A stretch of 64,000 nucleotides of DNA from IMG/VR virus record IMGVR_UViG_2541047873_000001; one strand, given 5' to 3'. Position 1 is the first letter of the stretch. Every line of letters starts with the position of its first letter. This document shows, one piece after another, positions 3,595 to 61,594 of this stretch. This DNA comes from a virus (Duplodnaviria; Heunggongvirae; Uroviricota; Caudoviricetes). A program made the translations under genes and the position numbers. The notes under the pieces were generated by a model, which worked only from the letters and a program-made list of their open reading frames with translations, was not told where the DNA came from and made no database searches.

Positions 3595-3607
3595 TGTTAG
3601 CAAATTG

Positions 3608-3625
3608 ATATTAATTTTCTAATAC
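3608..3625. promoter_or_regulatory. C1 operator-like site
   Basis: attaattttctaataca, one mismatch from the recurring 17-mer AAATTAATTTTCTAACA; sits ahead of the gene preceding pacA, as P1 Op88 sits ahead of lpa. Confidence 0.45.
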
Positions 3626-3701: not shown

Positions 3702-4094
3702 ATGGAGCAAATCAGTAGCGCCGAAATAGCGGATATCATGATCAGGGCTAACTGCTATCTGACGGTCACCGAAATCACCAGCCGTGCAAAAGCACAATAT
3801 CCTCACCTTCATGTGTCGCGCGTAAACGTAAATAACATCATACGTTTTTTTGTTCGTTCCAGTCGTGCCATTTGCGAAATAGACGACCGCGTATACCCCC
3901 GGAAATATTGGTTACATGGCCTGAATGGATACCAGTTCAAGGTGCGCGGGCGCACTCCTGAATTCGGTCGGCTGTTGGTGAAAAACACCAACCGAAAGAT
4001 AGAAGCTCAATTACGAAAGGAGCAGCGTCAGTTGGTGGCGATGACTAACCAGCTATGGAACGCCGCTGTGAAAAAACGTGAGGCTTCCCTATGA
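3702..4094 (+). CDS. Lpa-like late promoter activator candidate (by synteny)
   Basis: 130 aa basic protein directly upstream of pacA, preceded by an operator-like site; same arrangement as P1 lpa-pacA-pacB; no sequence-level identification. Confidence 0.35.
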   Translation: MEQISSAEIADIMIRANCYLTVTEITSRAKAQYPHLHVSRVNVNNIIRFFVRSSRAICEIDDRVYPRKYWLHGLNGYQFKVRGRTPEFGRLLVKNTNRKIEAQLRKEQRQLVAMTNQLWNAAVKKREASL

Positions 4095-5455
4095 CGTTAA
4101 TTAACTGGGAAGCGCATCGAGCTAAGTTCCTGGAGTTAAGAGAAGAAACCGGGATCACCATAAAAGAATATTGCGAGCAGCATGACCTCAGCTTTAACAC
4201 CGCCAGAAAGCATCTCAATATGAAAAAAAATGAGGTTAAGGCGAAAGCTAAGGCTGCCGGGAAAAGTACAAAACAGCGCGCAAAAAGCAGCGCCACCGGC
4301 TCAAAAAAAGAGCAAAAAAAGGCTGATAAAAGCACAGAATTTACAAAAACTGACAAATCGTTAGCTGGTGGACGGTTCCGCGCCATGCCGCAAAAACAAA
4401 ATGCGGATCACAAAGAAAAGCCAAGTAATAACAACAAGATACACAAGGATGTGAAGGGATCATTTTGTGATGAAATGGGAGAAATGATCCCTAAAAGCAG
4501 CGAAAAAGCCCAACGAAACAAGGGATCATTGCAAATGATCCCTGACTCATCAGCTCAAAGCGCCACTTTGCCTGCCACCAACGTCGCCCGTGAGATGATG
4601 AAGAACGGCGCGACTGAACATTTACGACTTGCGATACAGATGGCGCAGGAACGAGCAATTCAGTATCAGGCCATCGTTGACCAGGAAGCGGAGCGACTAC
4701 AGGAAGAGATTGACGCCCTCGGCGATACACAGCCAGAGGGGATGCACCCAGGGCAGCGTCTTCTCGGCCTAATAAGCGATGCGGCCTACTACATGAATGA
4801 CTTTATCAGTAGGTTGGCAGCCATCTACCAGACCGAGCAGAAGCTACGCCAGGGGGATGAAAAACTTGCGCAGGGCGCGCGTCAGCAGGCATTCAGGGAG
4901 GCTGAGGCCAGAGAAAAACTGGCGATTGCCCGCCTGCAAGCCGAGCAGCGTGGCAAAGAGATTGAGTATCGCATTGGCGCTGACGCACGCGCCGCCAGGG
5001 TTATCGCCGCCGCTATACGTATGCGTGAGCGCGAGGAGCTGGACGATATAGGCGTAGCTGAATATATCGAGCGGCAGGGCGTCAGTGTCCCGGCTATCCT
5101 GGCGGCACGAGCGGCAAAAGCGATCTCACTTCTGGAGCCTCCGGTTTCTGACGTTAACGATGTTGATGATGAGCAACTGGATAAAGAGGCGAAGCAGTTT
5201 GCCGAGCAACAAGCTGGACTCCCACAATGGCTTGCACAACGCCGGGCTGAAGTAGCGAAAATCGTTGATAGGCTTGGGATGGGGGATTACGACCGGAACG
5301 GAGAACGTAAAGCCGGTGAATTTGAGGCCAATGATGAAGACCTGAATATAGACCCTTCCGCCACGGCTGATATCTACGGTGATTATGACGCGGGGGATAC
5401 CGGTTTTGATGCTGTAGATGACGAGATTGCGATAGACCAGCCGGAGGATGACTAA
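4091..5455 (+). CDS. pacA: terminase pac-recognition subunit PacA-like
   Basis: 454 aa; N-terminal HTH-like segment, long charged coiled-coil middle; stop overlaps the large terminase start (TAATG); contains the GATC cluster. Confidence 0.6.
   Translation: MTLINWEAHRAKFLELREETGITIKEYCEQHDLSFNTARKHLNMKKNEVKAKAKAAGKSTKQRAKSSATGSKKEQKKADKSTEFTKTDKSLAGGRFRAMPQKQNADHKEKPSNNNKIHKDVKGSFCDEMGEMIPKSSEKAQRNKGSLQMIPDSSAQSATLPATNVAREMMKNGATEHLRLAIQMAQERAIQYQAIVDQEAERLQEEIDALGDTQPEGMHPGQRLLGLISDAAYYMNDFISRLAAIYQTEQKLRQGDEKLAQGARQQAFREAEAREKLAIARLQAEQRGKEIEYRIGADARAARVIAAAIRMREREELDDIGVAEYIERQGVSVPAILAARAAKAISLLEPPVSDVNDVDDEQLDKEAKQFAEQQAGLPQWLAQRRAEVAKIVDRLGMGDYDRNGERKAGEFEANDEDLNIDPSATADIYGDYDAGDTGFDAVDDEIAIDQPEDD
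4403..4546. other. candidate pac site (Dam-methylatable hexamer cluster)
   Basis: Five GATC-containing hexamers (GGATCA / TGATCC) in both orientations within about 140 bp inside pacA, including two copies each of gggatcatt and aatgatccc; P1 pac has clustered TGATCA/G hexamers within pacA. Confidence 0.5.
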
Positions 5456-7000: not shown

Positions 7001-8038
7001 TTACCAGAGTTTTGCCGCGTACATCGTTTGTGTGAATGTGTACCCATAGCGTTCTTCAACGCTTTTACCGTATTTTTTCCTGGCTTCAGTAAGGCGGATG
7101 CCTGTCAGGTCATCGCCGGAGGCAATCATAACTTCCAGTAGTTCCAGGTCCATTTTATCCAGCCTTGCCATTGCATCTTTAGCCTCTTGAATTTTCCGGC
7201 TAACGATCTGGTGTATGGCTGGATCGGCTTCGGCCAGCATTTTATCTGATTTGTTTTTTAAACTCTGATTGCGGATATCAATGTTTCTCAGGATATATGA
7301 CTTCACGACATAGCTTGGCTGCTGCTTTTCCAGATCACGAACCCGATAAAGGTCAAATTCGCCGAGAAGTCCGCACGGAAGCGGTTTAATGCCAGTGTAA
7401 ATGGTAAGGGTGCGGCGCTCACCAACGTTGTTAACAACGGGAATCTCTGTGTTTGCTTTTTTTGCAAAGATCAGCGCACCGTGCGTACCCACTCTGAAGC
7501 GTGAAAGTCCATTGTTGCCCTCGATATTGGTGGTAATCACCACATCGGTATAACCTTCTTTTCTTGCGCGGTATACCTCGCCCTCACGTTCAGCGGCGAA
7601 GAATCTGCGTTCTTCTTCAAGCGCACCGACAACCTGTGAAAATATCCTGTTTTTCATGCTTTTCTTTATAGTTTTATCGTATTTTTTCAACAGGTCTTCG
7701 CGCGTAAATGTTCTCGTTGTGGTTGCGCTTTGCATAACGATATGCGTACTCTGATTAGTATCCTCAACAATGAATGGGATCGGTAAATAAACCGACTCAA
7801 CAATGTTTGAGGCTTTGTCATCATCCTTGCGACACAGATCAACAAAGGCTTTCCATTCGGCTACGCATTTTTCAGCTTCTTCTAATACAGCCGGATCATG
7901 TGTTAATGCAACATGGCGAAATTCCTCGCCAACATAACTGGTATCATGGAAAACAGAGTTTGCGACCACCAGCTCTTTCCACCGTTCAGCGGTTTGCAGG
8001 AACCGTTTGTACTCATTCTCGATCGACTTCTTACTCAT
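7001..8038 (-). CDS. c1: C1-like immunity repressor (by position)
   Basis: About 345 aa from the internal MSKK start (track ORF extends to 8326 with no better start); lies between pacB and the recombinase as c1 does in P1; operator-like sites flank its promoter. Confidence 0.5.
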   Translation of the reverse strand: MSKKSIENEYKRFLQTAERWKELVVANSVFHDTSYVGEEFRHVALTHDPAVLEEAEKCVAEWKAFVDLCRKDDDKASNIVESVYLPIPFIVEDTNQSTHIVMQSATTTRTFTREDLLKKYDKTIKKSMKNRIFSQVVGALEEERRFFAAEREGEVYRARKEGYTDVVITTNIEGNNGLSRFRVGTHGALIFAKKANTEIPVVNNVGERRTLTIYTGIKPLPCGLLGEFDLYRVRDLEKQQPSYVVKSYILRNIDIRNQSLKNKSDKMLAEADPAIHQIVSRKIQEAKDAMARLDKMDLELLEVMIASGDDLTGIRLTEARKKYGKSVEERYGYTFTQTMYAAKLW

Positions 8039-8056
8039 TATTCCTACTCGATTTAG

Positions 8057-8067
8057 TTTTCTAACAT
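8057..8067. promoter_or_regulatory. C1 operator-like site (c1 promoter region)
   Basis: ttttctaacat core; a second inverted copy (tattagaaaa) lies at about 8131-8140. Confidence 0.45.
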
Positions 8068-19246: not shown

Positions 19247-19288
19247 AATGTATACCGACTCTGTTTTGTTCCGAGCGGTAAAATAATA

Positions 19289-19319
19289 TGTTAGAAAATT
19301 AAAATCAATATTCTAACAC
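19289..19319. promoter_or_regulatory. pair of C1 operator-like sites
   Basis: tgttagaaaattaaaatcaatattctaacac: two inverted copies of the TTCTAACA core between two leftward operons. Confidence 0.5.
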
Positions 19320-24335: not shown

Positions 24336-24367
24336 GTGTTAGAAAATCAATTTTGATTTTCTAACAC
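24336..24367. promoter_or_regulatory. palindromic double C1 operator-like site
   Basis: gtgttagaaaatcaa ttttgattttctaacac: perfect 32 bp palindrome of two operator cores between the leftward operon and ref. Confidence 0.6.
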
Positions 24368-35397: not shown

Positions 35398-36071
35398 AAC
35401 GCAGAGCGCAAATCGTAGGGACCAAACACCCTGCCGGACTTATGCGAGCGCAGGTCCGCATACTGCCTGACTGGAACGGTGTACCGGATGAAGACCTCCC
35501 ATGGGCAGAGTATCAAATGCCTATCGGTAACGCCTTTACACCTACAGTCAGCGGCGATTTAGTCTGGGTCGAATTTCCTTATCTGGATGCTAAAGGCAGG
35601 ATAGACACGCGCCGACCTTTAATCGTTGGTGCGGCGCAGGATGCCCCAGGAGGCGTACCAAATGTGCCTCCGGAAGCCTCCGGACAAGGAAGTGGATGGT
35701 CGCCAGAAGAAGTTGATGGTGCCCCTGCCCGCCCCCAGTTTTCGGCGACTGAAGATTTTGTTATTCACCGAAACAATATCCTTGAGGTCAGAACGGCTGG
35801 CGGTGGCTATGAAATAGCAAACACCGCCGCAGGATCAAGGATAGGGATGAACGAATCCGGCCAGATTTACATAATCGGCCCGGCGAATATAGTGCTTAAT
35901 GCTGGAGGTGAGGTTAACGTCAAATCAAGCAGCAAAACCAATGTATCCTCAGATGGAGACGTTAATGTAAAAGGCAGCAATGTAACCGTCGCAGCTGATG
36001 GTGATATAGCCCTGAAAGCTGGTGGCGCGCTAAAAGCAACAGCGAGCAATTTCTCCTTTGTGAAGGGATAG
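35394..36071 (+). CDS. baseplate central spike (gpV/gp5-like)
   Basis: 225 aa; Gly-rich C-terminal beta-repeat region (NVKSSSKTNVSSDGDVNVKGSNVTVAADGDIALKAGG). Confidence 0.55.
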   Translation: MKRRAQIVGTKHPAGLMRAQVRILPDWNGVPDEDLPWAEYQMPIGNAFTPTVSGDLVWVEFPYLDAKGRIDTRRPLIVGAAQDAPGGVPNVPPEASGQGSGWSPEEVDGAPARPQFSATEDFVIHRNNILEVRTAGGGYEIANTAAGSRIGMNESGQIYIIGPANIVLNAGGEVNVKSSSKTNVSSDGDVNVKGSNVTVAADGDIALKAGGALKATASNFSFVKG

Positions 36072-36100
36072 CAAAATGCAAAACTGTATTAGATAATTGA

Positions 36101-36117
36101 GTTTTATTTTCTAACAC
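36101..36117. promoter_or_regulatory. C1 operator-like site
   Basis: gttttattttctaacac ahead of the rdgC operon. Confidence 0.5.
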
Positions 36118-36130
36118 AGTTTTGCTAAAC

Positions 36131-37036
36131 ATGAGATTAGTCGCCTTTAAAAACATATACGTCTATCGCCTTGCCCGCGAAATAAAACTGGACTCAACCA
36201 CCGTTAGTGATGCCTTAAGCCAATTCACATTCACTCCATGCGCATCACAAGAAATGGCAAAAGTCGGATGGGTGCCGGTTCTGGCTGACAACCTGATCCA
36301 TGAATACCACGGTTTTCTACTTCTCCAGCAACAGCGAGAAATTAAGCTCCTGCCCTCTCATGTCATTAAGGAGGAAGTGCAGAAAAAAGTGGAAAAGCTC
36401 GAAAATGAGCAATCTCGTAAGCTGAAGAAGTCGGAAAAAAACACCCTGAAGGATGAAGTTCTCCACTCTTTGTTGCCTCGTGCATTCACTCGCAAATCAT
36501 TGTCGCGAATCCTTATTGATCGCGACAACTATCTGGTCTTCGTAGAAGCTTCCAGCGCCAGAAAAGCTGAAGAAATGCTGGCGCTCTTACGTAAATCACT
36601 TGGCAGCCTGCCAGTGATTCCATTCACGCCGATAGAACCGCTCGAAATGACTATGACCGAATGGTTCAAGTCAACATTTCCTCAAGGCTTTAAAGCAGGC
36701 GAAGAAGCCATATTGAAATCTCTGTTCGATGACGGCGGCGCAGTTCGTTGCAAGAAAGTAGACCTACAGTCAGAGGAAATAATGACTCATATTGAAGCCG
36801 GAAAAGTTGCAACAACAGTTGCAATCAACTGGCAGGACCGCGCGACCTTCAGGTTAAACGATGACATGAGCATCAAAGCACTGACGTTTTGCGATGATCT
36901 CTATGACCAGAACGATGACATCGACCGTGAAGATGTTGCCCAGCGATTTGATGCTGACTTCATTCTGTTCACAAGCGAATTATCCGCGATGTTTAGCTCG
37001 CTGGTGGAGGCCATTGGCGGTGAAGCAGAGCATTAA
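36131..37036 (+). CDS. rdgC: recombination-associated protein RdgC
   Basis: 301 aa; colinear with E. coli RdgC (FKNxxVYRL, FTPCxSQxMAKxGWVP, LKDEVLHSLLPRAF, LALLRKSLGSLPV, DELRDQNEDIDREDxAQRFDADFIL). Confidence 0.85.
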   Translation: MRLVAFKNIYVYRLAREIKLDSTTVSDALSQFTFTPCASQEMAKVGWVPVLADNLIHEYHGFLLLQQQREIKLLPSHVIKEEVQKKVEKLENEQSRKLKKSEKNTLKDEVLHSLLPRAFTRKSLSRILIDRDNYLVFVEASSARKAEEMLALLRKSLGSLPVIPFTPIEPLEMTMTEWFKSTFPQGFKAGEEAILKSLFDDGGAVRCKKVDLQSEEIMTHIEAGKVATTVAINWQDRATFRLNDDMSIKALTFCDDLYDQNDDIDREDVAQRFDADFILFTSELSAMFSSLVEAIGGEAEH

Positions 37037-37700
37037 TAACCGACCGCTGGCGGTGAGTCTTTGTGATTATACAGGGAATATGGTTTCCCCCTGGCTGGAA
37101 CACGGCATTGATGCAGTCATTGTCGATCCGCAACACCAGGAGTCCGGCAGCCAATTGATGGAGTCAGGTGCTGTACTCACACGTATCAGCGCAATTATTG
37201 ACAGTGATGAGGTCTACAATTTCCTTCGGAAAAATTTGCACAGAGTTGTATTTTTAGCCGGTTTCCCTCCGTGTACTGACCTGGCTGTATCTGGCGCACG
37301 CTGGTTCGCAGATAAAGCGAAAAAAGATCCGGTTTTCCAGTTCAAAGCAATGCAGGTTGTCTGGCAGTGTTACGACATTGCAAAGATGATTGGTTGCCCG
37401 TACATGATTGAAAACCCGGTCAGCCAAATATCGACATTCTGGCGTAAACCTGATCACATATTCCATCCTTATCACTTCACTGCATATTGCAAGGAAGACA
37501 ATTACACCAAAAAAACATGCCTGTGGAGCGGACAAGGATTCATCATGCCAACTCCGCGAATCGACGAGTCGTTAGGTGATCCAGACAACCGAATACACAA
37601 GGCACCGCCAGGACCTGAAAGAGCGAATTTTCGTAGCGCGACACCTTACGGTTTTGCAAGAGCTGTATTTGAAGCAAATAAGGAGGGAATCCGTGGCTGA
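37020..37700 (+). CDS. degenerate C5-cytosine methyltransferase-like protein (start uncertain)
   Basis: AGFPPCTDLAVSGA resembles C5-MTase motif IV (PCQ to PCT), MIENPVS resembles the ENV motif; motif I region degenerate; stop overlaps dam start. Confidence 0.45.
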   Translation: MKQSINNRPLAVSLCDYTGNMVSPWLEHGIDAVIVDPQHQESGSQLMESGAVLTRISAIIDSDEVYNFLRKNLHRVVFLAGFPPCTDLAVSGARWFADKAKKDPVFQFKAMQVVWQCYDIAKMIGCPYMIENPVSQISTFWRKPDHIFHPYHFTAYCKEDNYTKKTCLWSGQGFIMPTPRIDESLGDPDNRIHKAPPGPERANFRSATPYGFARAVFEANKEGIRG

Positions 37701-38610
37701 TATTGGTGCTAAATTTATTTCTTATAGCGACAATCATCGTCCTGCGGCGGAAGCCACTATCAGCCATATGCGACGTATTCGCTCGGAGGACGAATTTGAT
37801 CGCCCCGTCTTTAAGTGGGTCGGCGGCAAATTTTCTGCACTGCCCATTATCTTCGAACACCTGCCCCACGGAAAACGGTTGATAGAACCTTTCGTTGGAG
37901 GTGGCGCTGTTTTCACTAATGCCGGATTTAAAAGCAACCTGCTGAACGATATCAATAATGACCTGATTAACTTCTATCAGACATTGCAGCGTGAAGGGCA
38001 TTCTCTTATCACACTGGCATATCGTTTTTTTCAGGATTACAACTCTGCTGATGCATTTTTGAATGTTCGCAATGCATTCAACAATGGTGCTTATGATTCC
38101 CTTCACCATGCAGCGGCGTTCCTGTATCTCAATCGTCATTGTTTTAATGGCGTCACTCGCTATAACCGTAAAGGAGAGTTCAACGTCGGATATGGAAAGC
38201 AGAAATCCCCCCACTTCCCTCTCGCGGAAATGGAGGCGTTCCTGGCTGACGATATTTCAAAGTATTCGGAATTTGTGTCCGGCGATTTTGCTGGTGTAAT
38301 TGAGGCTGCAGGGAATGATGATGTGATTTTCTGCGATCCCCCCTATGAACCATTGCCCGACACTACCGGATTTACAAATTACTCAGGGCATAGCTTTAGG
38401 TTTGAAGATCAACAACGGCTGGTGTCACTGCTGGTGGATGCCCACAGACGCGGAGCGAAAATTGTGATAACAAACAGTGGTGCGCCTAACATTCGCGAAC
38501 TTTACGTTGGCAATGGCTTCAAGGTGTATCCTATGCCATCCCGTCGCTCTGTATCCTGTAAAGCATCAACCCGAATGATAGCTAACGACATTATAGCCAC
38601 GCTCAATTAA
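37693..38610 (+). CDS. dam: DNA adenine methyltransferase (Dam family)
   Basis: GTG start after aaggaggg RBS; FKWVGGK, EPFVGGGAV, FLYLNRHCFNG, DPPY motifs; hairpin terminator at 38613-38636. Confidence 0.9.
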   Translation: MADIGAKFISYSDNHRPAAEATISHMRRIRSEDEFDRPVFKWVGGKFSALPIIFEHLPHGKRLIEPFVGGGAVFTNAGFKSNLLNDINNDLINFYQTLQREGHSLITLAYRFFQDYNSADAFLNVRNAFNNGAYDSLHHAAAFLYLNRHCFNGVTRYNRKGEFNVGYGKQKSPHFPLAEMEAFLADDISKYSEFVSGDFAGVIEAAGNDDVIFCDPPYEPLPDTTGFTNYSGHSFRFEDQQRLVSLLVDAHRRGAKIVITNSGAPNIRELYVGNGFKVYPMPSRRSVSCKASTRMIANDIIATLN

Positions 38611-38644
38611 GAAAAGCCCCATATGGGGCTTTATAACATCAAAT

Positions 38645-38740
38645 AAACGCCATTACGGTACACTAATAACACCATTCTGGTACTAAAAAGGCATCAAGGT
38701 AGTATCAAAATACCACATGGAACCAAAACGGTGTTATTCC
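38645..38740. repeat. partition-site repeats downstream of parG
   Basis: Repeated aacacc...ggtactaaaa and ggtatcaaaatacc motifs, also found upstream of parA. Confidence 0.5.
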
Positions 38741-38744
38741 GGCG

Positions 38745-39032
38745 TCATTTTGTATCCTCAGACTCTGCAAGCATGAGGATAGCATGGCGGATCATATTCA
38801 ATTTGCTGCGATTATGCTTTTTGCTTAACGCATCAAGTACCTGGTACTCGTATTCATTGAAGCCAACACGAATGGATTTAAAATCACGTGGGGCGTCCTT
38901 ATCGAGCACTTTGTTGTCTTCTGGTTGCTCACCCGGCACCAAATCAGCTTTGCTGGCAAAAGCCTCAATTCGGCGTTCAAGATCGAGGTCTTTTACTTCG
39001 GGGGCTTTTACCGATTTACGAGGCTTAATCAC
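38745..39032 (-). CDS. ParG-like ribbon-helix-helix centromere-binding protein
   Basis: 95 aa; small protein overlapping the ParA stop; C-terminal SIRVGFNEYEYQVLDALSKKHN resembles RHH partition proteins. Confidence 0.5.
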   Translation of the reverse strand: MIKPRKSVKAPEVKDLDLERRIEAFASKADLVPGEQPEDNKVLDKDAPRDFKSIRVGFNEYEYQVLDALSKKHNRSKLNMIRHAILMLAESEDTK

Positions 39033-59315: not shown

Positions 59316-60742
59316 GTATTACCGAATTACTGGACAAGTTTAATGCCAAGCTGAACGAAAACCCCTGGTGGGCGCGATTTGTAAACAGCCAGTTTATTCA
59401 AATGCAGTCCGTTTTGGGCGCGCAGATTGTTTATATTGCGCGTACATTTGCAAGCCGTGCACTTACAGAAGGATTCATTTCCACCGCGACGCGTAGAGCA
59501 AGTATTCTCGCGGCAGCGGAAGACCGTGGCTATGTCGGTCGTTTGGTCGATGCGTCATACGGCACTGTTTCCATCACCAACAAAACCGACAGGGATATTA
59601 CTCTACCCGGAGGGGCTGAATTACTGACAAGTGACCAGACACCAATTGCAACCAGCAGTAGTGTTGTTATCCCTGCTGGTGAAACAGTACCCGGCATAGA
59701 AGTAAAACAGCATGAAGCAGTCAGCGTAACGTTCGACGTGGTGCAAGAAACACCATTCTTGACGCTGTTACTTTCCCGTGAGTTAACAGCAGAAGTCGCC
59801 AGCCTGGAAGTTGTCGTGATAACTAATGGTGTCGAGGAAAAATGGACACATAACCCCCTGTTCCGCATGTCCAGGGATAACAGTAAACATTATGTGTTGG
59901 TTTATAAGCCGACAGAACAGATCGGCGTGCGCTTCGGTGATGGATCAATGGGGATGATGCCAGCGGCAGGGAGTCAGGTACGCATTGATATTATGGCAAG
60001 CCTCGGTGATTACACGCTGGCTGAAGGCCAGAAACTTGAACCAGCAGGGAACATCTCCGGGTATGTCGAATCACTGGAAGTAAAAACCGATTCGATCATT
60101 TCTGGCGGTGGTGGCATGGAAACTACCGAGGAAACCCGAAACAGGGCGCAGTATTATGTGGCCTACGATGAGCAGGTTGTTTGGGGCGGTGATTACCGCC
60201 AGTTCATTCAGAACGTGGTCAGTGGCACGTCATGGCTTAACGTGTGGGGGGAGGCGCTACAGGAGAAAATCACGGGCTTTGATGTGCGTAATATCAACAA
60301 AATTTTCTTTTGTGGGCACAAGCCCGGCGTAACACAGGAAGCTCTGAAAACAGAGATATTATCAGCCCTTGAGAGTATCCCTAATGAGCTGAATAAGAAG
60401 TTCGAATACGTCGCCACCAATGAACAGCCGTTCAACATCAAATTTACCGGTATCGTAAAAAAGAGTGTGCTGGTGGATGACGCGCTAACTGCAATTAAAG
60501 CGGCACTGGAGGAGAACTTCGGTAAAGACTCCATGTCATTTAGCCAGCTATTGCAGAGTGATGACGATTCACAGCAATGTTATGCACAGGTCAAAGTAAA
60601 AGATATCTGGCGAGTAATCGAATCGCTGGATATGTTCCTGTCTTATGACGTGGCTACGCAGAACATGAAAGAAGCTGTGTACTTTAATGATTTTGTTTAT
60701 CTGGACGTGGAATCATCAACGTTCAGCATAACCTATCCGTAA
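59312..60742 (+). CDS. baseplate J-like protein candidate
   Basis: 476 aa; position and size fit a baseplate wedge protein. Confidence 0.45.
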   Translation: MSITELLDKFNAKLNENPWWARFVNSQFIQMQSVLGAQIVYIARTFASRALTEGFISTATRRASILAAAEDRGYVGRLVDASYGTVSITNKTDRDITLPGGAELLTSDQTPIATSSSVVIPAGETVPGIEVKQHEAVSVTFDVVQETPFLTLLLSRELTAEVASLEVVVITNGVEEKWTHNPLFRMSRDNSKHYVLVYKPTEQIGVRFGDGSMGMMPAAGSQVRIDIMASLGDYTLAEGQKLEPAGNISGYVESLEVKTDSIISGGGGMETTEETRNRAQYYVAYDEQVVWGGDYRQFIQNVVSGTSWLNVWGEALQEKITGFDVRNINKIFFCGHKPGVTQEALKTEILSALESIPNELNKKFEYVATNEQPFNIKFTGIVKKSVLVDDALTAIKAALEENFGKDSMSFSQLLQSDDDSQQCYAQVKVKDIWRVIESLDMFLSYDVATQNMKEAVYFNDFVYLDVESSTFSITYP

Positions 60743-60751
60743 GAGGTCACA

Positions 60752-61594
60752 ATGCAGAATAACTGGCTAAAAGAGCGTCTGACGCAATTTAAACAGGATT
60801 CTAAATTGTGGGCCGCCTTTGTTGATACGATTCAGGACGTGTGGAATGAATCGGTTGAACCTATTCTCACGCGAATAAGCAACCGTAAATCGTTTTTCAC
60901 AATGGCAAGGGAGGATATGGACACTCGCATTGCTGAATATGGTCGTTTCTTTGTTATCACAGAAACGGACAAAACACGCAGGCCAATGCTATTAGCTCAA
61001 CGACTGGATGAGGTGCACTTCAAAGGAACAGTAAGGCCGATAGAGCAAACGTTCTGGCGTGAATTTGGCACAATCCCCGTCTCATGGGAACCTTTGTATG
61101 CGCCTGTCGATACAGAAAAACATCCCTATGGTTCATTCTTCGCGACCGCAAATGAAATACCGACCGCTCAGGCACAATATGGTGAGTTTTTCCTGACATC
61201 CAGAGGGCTGGTTGTCGTCAACCAAAATAAGCTGTATCGAGCTTATGATAGCGATGACCGAGACGTTGCTGTACAGAAGCTACTTGCTGATTTTGATACG
61301 GTTATAGCGCCGCTATTGCCATTGCATATCGTGTTTGATGGTGTTTCTTTCCAGTTAAGCGCAACATTGCCGGAAATGGCGGAGATCCTGAATTGCTTAT
61401 CTGCGGAAGTGTCCTTTATTGAGGGGGTGTACACGACGCAAGAGATGGTCGATGAGCTATCTATTAGCGATACGATCATTCAAATAGGCGGCATCCAGTT
61501 CGCAGGAAGGCCAGACCGGACGACGGAAAGAGTGCTTCATCTCGATGAACTCCCGCTCGACGCCTGGGCGCTGGATTATAATTTTGCACCTTAG
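60752..61594 (+). CDS. baseplate or tail protein candidate
   Basis: 280 aa. Confidence 0.4.
   Translation: MQNNWLKERLTQFKQDSKLWAAFVDTIQDVWNESVEPILTRISNRKSFFTMAREDMDTRIAEYGRFFVITETDKTRRPMLLAQRLDEVHFKGTVRPIEQTFWREFGTIPVSWEPLYAPVDTEKHPYGSFFATANEIPTAQAQYGEFFLTSRGLVVVNQNKLYRAYDSDDRDVAVQKLLADFDTVIAPLLPLHIVFDGVSFQLSATLPEMAEILNCLSAEVSFIEGVYTTQEMVDELSISDTIIQIGGIQFAGRPDRTTERVLHLDELPLDAWALDYNFAP

Follow-up and report, generated by a model that had tools for sequence, protein, structure and literature searches.

In phage P1 the dmt operon is laid out as Odmt (Op68), Pdmt, uhr, hrdC and dmt. The Dmt protein has two domains, PF00145 and PF02086, and its N-terminal half is a canonical PF00145 C5 (cytosine-5) methylase. 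A related arrangement is annotated in Escherichia phage D6, a P1-related plasmid prophage (GenBank MF356679): orf65 is assigned to the RdgC family, orf64 is a 'putative DNA-cytosine methylase', and orf63, a Dam, is described as 'similar to C-term half of P1 dmt only'. Here we analyse the corresponding locus of the IMG/VR virus record IMGVR_UViG_2541047873_000001 (Caudoviricetes), a stretch of 64,000 nucleotides that we refer to as the window. At positions 36086-38610 a palindromic operator-like site is followed by an rdgC homologue, a gene for a small C5-methyltransferase-like protein (the middle protein) and dam. We consider it probable that this region is the D6-lineage counterpart of the P1 dmt operon and works as in the mechanism proposed below.

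P1 and the window have in common an early operon fronted by a C1 operator (predicted in the window), an RdgC-family gene, a cytosine-methylase function and Dam. They differ as follows: the window operon lacks uhr and is placed immediately after a gene-5-like baseplate gene, its operator is unlike P1's in sequence and is bivalent at rdgC, and its cytosine-methylase function is a separate protein whose gene overlaps dam, whereas in P1 Dmt it is fused to Dam. The D6 lineage thus keeps the order RdgC, cytosine-methylase slot, Dam, with the slot filled by a different sequence family and left unfused. A sequence-only reading of this DNA had implied that the trio is new. It is not: the genes are annotated in D6, the P1 counterpart hrdC-dmt under Op68 is on record, and the operon is ordinary for such phage-plasmids.

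Three overlapping genes in a D6-like phage-plasmid

The first gene (36131-37036, plus strand, 301 aa) encodes an RdgC/HrdC homologue. It matches PF04381 over its full length (E 1e-100, 337 bits against a cut-off of 25), the NCBIfam equivalog NF001462 (375.6 bits against a cut-off of 330) and PHROG 724, and is 51% identical to P1 HrdC. The full-length family match is common to E. coli RdgC, from which the window copy differs in being borne by a phage-plasmid and, by prediction, repressor controlled. The last gene (37693-38610, plus strand, 305 aa) encodes a Dam-family N6-adenine DNA methyltransferase that matches PF02086 (E 2e-53, 182 bits against a cut-off of 22) and TIGR00571 (231.6 bits against a cut-off of 114.85), has the catalytic DPPY motif at residues 215-218 and shares 69% identity with P1 Dmt over the latter's C-terminal half, linker included. 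Its similarities suggest specificity for GATC. Between the two lies the gene of the middle protein (37020-37700, plus strand, 226 aa), which starts with GTG. The sequence-only reading had called the RdgC homologue clear and the Dam canonical, within one operator-fronted operon of three overlapping genes, and all of this stands.

The rdgC gene overlaps the middle gene by 17 nt, and the middle gene overlaps dam by 8 nt (GTGGCTGA in the window, ATGAGTAA in D6); the dam start lies behind a conserved AAGGRGG. Because of these start/stop overlaps and the conserved Shine-Dalgarno sequences, the three genes are likely to be translationally coupled. A GC-rich hairpin, AAAGCCCCATATGGGGCTTT (38613-38632, no strand assigned), follows directly after dam. 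The scan scored it on the minus strand; on the plus strand the stem is followed by TTTAT, and the hairpin is the probable end of the operon. The same three genes, in the same order and with the same overlaps, start signals and upstream palindrome, are found in D6 orf65-orf64-orf63; the middle protein is 84% identical between D6 and the window.

The window represents a D6-like phage-plasmid of E. coli that is related to P1. It is collinear with D6 along its whole length, and the 2.7 kb around the locus are 74% identical to D6 at the nucleotide level and 99-99.9% identical to several non-mobilizable E. coli plasmids of ~90 kb. P1-like tail and baseplate genes flank the operon on one side, where it sits directly 3' of a late gene-5-like baseplate gene, and StbA/ParA-type partition genes flank it on the other. 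In D6, pKOr024_2 and a Salmonella plasmid, glnS (glutaminyl-tRNA synthetase) comes directly after dam, while no such gene follows dam in the window or in pPSS-08-1_2 (window 38611-38745 against D6 59925-61586). In a further plasmid that is 94.5% identical (NZ_CP069647.1), rdgC and the middle gene, homologous to 36131-37700, are annotated as several short fragments, which suggests frameshifts or sequencing errors there.

The middle protein and its family

The near-identical plasmids in RefSeq, annotated by PGAP, start the middle gene at ATG 37080, 60 nt late, and label its product a hypothetical protein. We find the GTG at 37020 to be the likelier start, judging from the sequence. It is preceded by a ribosome-binding site (GGAGG-N9-GTG, 37006-37022) of which GGAGG and GTG are kept in D6 and in two diverged plasmids, and only this start retains C15, D16 and G19, residues invariant in the family that the later start cuts off.

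The protein matches PHROG 757 ('DNA methyltransferase') over its full length (E 3.1e-78, residues 3-223). The family is very large: tblastn finds relatives in 1588 phage records, and searches of large protein collections give 7685 matches, which form 2550 clusters at 50% identity; none carries a precomputed Pfam domain. Phages with a member include T1/TLS-like Drexlerviridae, Jerseyvirus, Webervirus and Vequintavirus, where it is often labelled Dcm. These PHROG 757 / VOG4567 'Dcm' proteins have the same size of ~220 aa and the same invariant motifs as the window protein. The genomic setting differs: the lytic phages carry the gene by itself within their replication module, and T1-like, Jersey-like and rV5-like phages have it beside helicase or replication genes, whereas in the window it lies between rdgC and dam. 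DNA of KP36, which carries a family member, is resistant to EcoRII, a property that its authors credited to the host Dcm (PMC3620542).

The motifs reported by the sequence-only reading are present as described. FPPCT (residues 82-86) and ENP (residues 131-133) are the aligned counterparts of TPCQ and ENV in P1 Dmt, and correspond to the Pro-Cys nucleophile of motif IV and the acid of motif VI. Motif I has no FxGxG. In its place stands LCDYTGNM, in which G19, at the position of the β1-loop-helix turn, is the only shared residue; canonical C5 methyltransferases (PF00145; M.HhaI, the DNMT3 catalytic domain) have FxGxG where the window protein has CDxTG. Across 57 homologues with 55-84% identity the invariant residues are C15, D16 and G19 in the β1 loop, D36-P-Q-H at the end of β2, I60 and D61 at the end of β3, F82-P-P-C-T86, E131-N-P133 and R205-S-A-T-P209. 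The window protein is ~100 aa shorter than the canonical C5 enzymes and has no recognisable target-recognition domain: from motif VI to the C-terminal RSATP helix there are ~70 residues (134-205), modelled partly with low confidence.

The AlphaFold2 model, a confident one (predicted local distance difference test 87, predicted template modelling score 0.86), has a Rossmann-type strand order and the fold of a C5 methyltransferase catalytic domain. Its nearest neighbours are DNMT3B and bacterial C5 methyltransferases, with DNMT3A and DNMT1 also listed. A Foldseek search of the PDB gave weak matches with FtsJ-type enzymes ranked first; in BFVD the matches are phage proteins named DNA-cytosine methylase, with canonical viral C5 methylases lower down. 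The sequence-only reading had let its assignment of a methyltransferase fold depend on structure prediction, and the predicted fold bears it out. Two further BFVD entries, A0A6J5NPY6 and A0A6J5SE15, contain the same small fold as a domain of phage proteins of 1100-1400 aa; one of the two is named with a helicase/UvrB N-terminal region, reminiscent of the P1 DarB-type methylase-helicase proteins.

The protein has no match in Pfam at E 0.01, and BLASTP finds no similarity between it and P1 Dmt. With narrow profiles, hhalign aligned motif IV alone and without significance (E 0.64). With wide profiles (119 family sequences against eight diverse canonical C5 methylases, among them P1 Dmt and rho11s), motifs I, II, III, IV and VI come into register over 123 columns (P 0.002).

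Natural rearrangements give independent hints. P0241 is a 563-aa fusion of a PHROG-757-type domain (53% identity) and a Dam domain (48% identity), in the order of the window's two genes (37020-38610) and of P1 Dmt. In P0340 a Hint/LAGLIDADG intein is inserted immediately in front of the catalytic Cys in FPP|C-T (Cys85 in the window, ~37272); inteins typically lie at catalytic sites. P0216, a relative of P1 Dmt, also carries intein domains. Given the invariant motifs, the predicted fold, the profile alignment, the Dam fusion in P0241 and the intein in P0340, we argue for an intact enzyme under selection, with C5-pyrimidine methyltransferase chemistry.

Operator-like sites and the C1 homologue

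The site upstream of rdgC is a 32-bp palindromic, that is, bivalent operator-like sequence, GTaTTAGATAATTGAGTTTTATTTTCTAACAC (36086-36117, no strand assigned), defined by motif counts and by alignment with D6 and plasmids. The sequence-only reading had marked GTTTTATTTTCTAACAC at 36101-36117 as the operator. That site is real and enriched, the 17-mer having four matches in the window at up to three mismatches where 0.14 are expected; it is, however, only the right arm of the palindrome. A search with the core TTCTAAYAY finds ~10 sites in the window, of the form WTTRATTTTCTAAYAY. Further copies, single or as 32-bp palindromes, lie in intergenic regions at 3602-3625, 8050-8067, 9452, 19288-19319, 24336-24367, 24990 and 45490. 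Those at 24336-24367 and 19288-19319 are perfect or near-perfect palindromes, equal in length and arms to the rdgC site.

The distribution of these copies resembles that of the P1 operators. They lie in intergenic regions that correspond to operator positions of P1 (lpa, c1, ref and others), and P1 has C1 operators at equivalent places (Oc1, Olpa, Odmt). In D6 the same motif occurs in the matching intergenic regions, including those just ahead of c1, lpa, ref and orf65/rdgC. The window has both mono- and bivalent (palindromic) forms, as P1 does, and it shows the P1-type pattern in which asymmetric sites, alone or as inverted pairs that overlap, are dispersed in front of c1 and early operons. 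A c1 repressor homologue (7001-8038, minus strand, 345 aa), which corresponds by collinearity to D6 orf1 ('prophage repressor, similar to P1 C1'), is the presumed operator-binding protein; the copy at 8050-8067 lies directly upstream of it. It is 21% identical to P1 C1 (E 1e-7), and because the repressor has diverged to this extent an operator sequence unlike P1's is to be expected. The 17-bp P1 C1 operator consensus, ATTGCTCTAATAAATTT, is not matched by the rdgC site, which by eye shares ~7 of 17 positions with it. The repeated motif is likely to be the C1 operator and the operon to be under immunity control: the analogy with P1 Odmt/Op68 and the motif distribution favour this proposal of the sequence-only reading.

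We aligned the rdgC palindrome of the window with D6 and four plasmids, three of them diverged and one 99% identical. Conservation in the intergenic region is highest across the palindrome, and its flanks diverge. The left arm reads GTGTTAGATAAT in D6 and in all four plasmids and GTaTTAGATAAT in the window, where a G-to-A change at position 36088 gives GTaTTAG instead of the GTGTTAG of the relatives. This change may weaken repression of the operon. By eye we read a candidate weak sigma-70 promoter on the plus strand (36069-36097), with TAGCAA at 36069-36074, a 17-nt spacer and GATAAT at 36092-36097. GATAAT is kept in the alignment, and this -10 element falls inside the left operator arm.

Proposed mechanism and alternatives

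In the mechanism that we propose by analogy with P1, the element's own C1-type repressor would, in the plasmid-prophage state, bind the 32-bp operator over the likely -10 element and transcription start. The three genes, probably coupled in translation, would be expressed together as early functions upon induction or infection. Dam, as its sequence suggests, would methylate the GATC sites of phage DNA during replication; this methylation most likely licenses, as it does in P1, pac cleavage in pacA for packaging, and it would incidentally protect GATC sites. The middle protein would act as a minimal C5 catalytic domain, with a Rossmann S-adenosylmethionine site, the catalytic Cys85 in FPPCT and Glu131 in ENP, and would most likely add 5-methylcytosine at a short motif, which would protect or mark replicating phage DNA. 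RdgC/HrdC, finally, is predicted from its family to be a DNA-binding protein that restrains RecA on replicating phage DNA; RecA restraint is the known biochemistry of E. coli RdgC.

A candidate substrate for Dam is found in the window itself. The densest GATC cluster (4406-4570, no strand assigned), with paired GGGATCAT and ATGATCCC, lies inside pacA (4091-5455) and has five sites in 170 bp, 315-480 nt into the gene. This is similar to the position of P1 pac, ~280 nt into pacA. The cluster is probably the pac site and likely a substrate of Dam. In P1, the requirement of Dam methylation for pac cleavage is the best documented role of Dam (PMC12707154).

Several observations weigh against parts of this scheme. 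A stringent consensus scan for sigma-70 promoters detected none at the locus, and the operon could be transcribed by read-through from the upstream baseplate gene. That C1 binds the operator is something we infer from the motif distribution and the P1 analogy. As for the middle protein, the PF00145 hidden Markov model (HMM) matches neither it nor its 57 homologues, even at E 10; NCBIfam gives no match, nor do sequence searches of the PDB (phmmer and profile); and the wide-profile hhalign alignment has a probability of 15%. Its 226 aa leave little room for a target-recognition domain, and the searchable literature yields no experiment on any member of its family. P1 does not require hrdC and dmt to form plaques on a Dam+ host (PMC10695390), and for this reason phenotypes of the operon may be subtle or conditional. 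Given the failure of the HMM and the lack of FxGxG, we file the middle protein not in PF00145 but as a member of PHROG 757 that works like a C5 methylase.

How much of the middle protein's chemistry is as proposed can be weighed against three other readings. The protein may be active without being a plain autonomous DNA 5-methylcytosine methylase, needing Dam or another partner, using carboxy-S-adenosylmethionine as donor, or acting on RNA or at another pyrimidine position. We regard this as unlikely: motifs IV and VI are the set for C5-pyrimidine chemistry, the protein takes the very position of a canonical C5 DNA methylase domain, and in the T1-like, Jersey-like and rV5-like phages the gene stands away from Dam. 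Another idea, the most novel one and in our judgement also unlikely, is that the PHROG-757 proteins of ~220 aa are the smallest class of C5-pyrimidine DNA methyltransferases, essentially devoid of a target-recognition domain and either near-nonspecific or guided by a partner. Here that partner would be Dam, whose gene overlaps and is coupled to that of the middle protein and whose domain is fused to it in P0241, and the two proteins would form a composite methylase yielding doubly modified GATC-linked sites. The third reading makes the middle open reading frame a decayed, catalytically dead C5 relic, retained only to space or couple rdgC and dam. The missing FxGxG, PCT in place of PCQ, the lack of Pfam and NCBIfam matches and the RefSeq label 'hypothetical protein' all speak for it, and the sequence-only reading had likewise called the protein degenerate. 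That description does not survive the comparison with its relatives: a very large, strongly conserved phage family keeps PCT, ENP and the odd motif I without variation, so that these are not signs of decay, and we hold a dead relic to be highly improbable.

The operator has an alternative of its own, namely that the TTTTCTAACAY motif is another kind of element (a late-promoter box, an activator box or a site for a nucleoid protein, for example) and has no part in immunity control. The location of the rdgC site directly after a late tail/baseplate gene would suit such an element, as would its poor match to the P1 consensus and the indirect case for C1 binding given above. Still, the sites sit where P1 has its C1 operators (c1, lpa, ref and the hrdC-dmt operon), the mono- and bivalent palindromic forms are those of P1, and a repressor 21% identical to P1 C1 is expected to recognise a different sequence. 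We therefore consider this alternative very unlikely and retain immunity control by C1 in the proposed mechanism. We also considered the locus as a defence system and rejected it: the PADLOC matches are to Dam alone, through generic methylase models, and PADLOC has no match to the middle protein.

For the phage-plasmid itself little changes: the locus is the expected early operon for DNA modification and recombination control of P1/D6-type phage-plasmids, and the anti-recombination and anti-restriction roles suggested for it are plausible. Thousands of members of the middle protein's common, minimal phage methylase-like family are absent from Pfam and go unlabelled because PGAP starts the gene late and calls the product hypothetical. 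The family is present in more than 1500 sequenced phages, including therapeutic candidates against Klebsiella and E. coli, and cytosine modification by its members, if real, would affect restriction evasion, sensitivity to McrBC-type enzymes and nanopore and bisulfite readouts of phage DNA.

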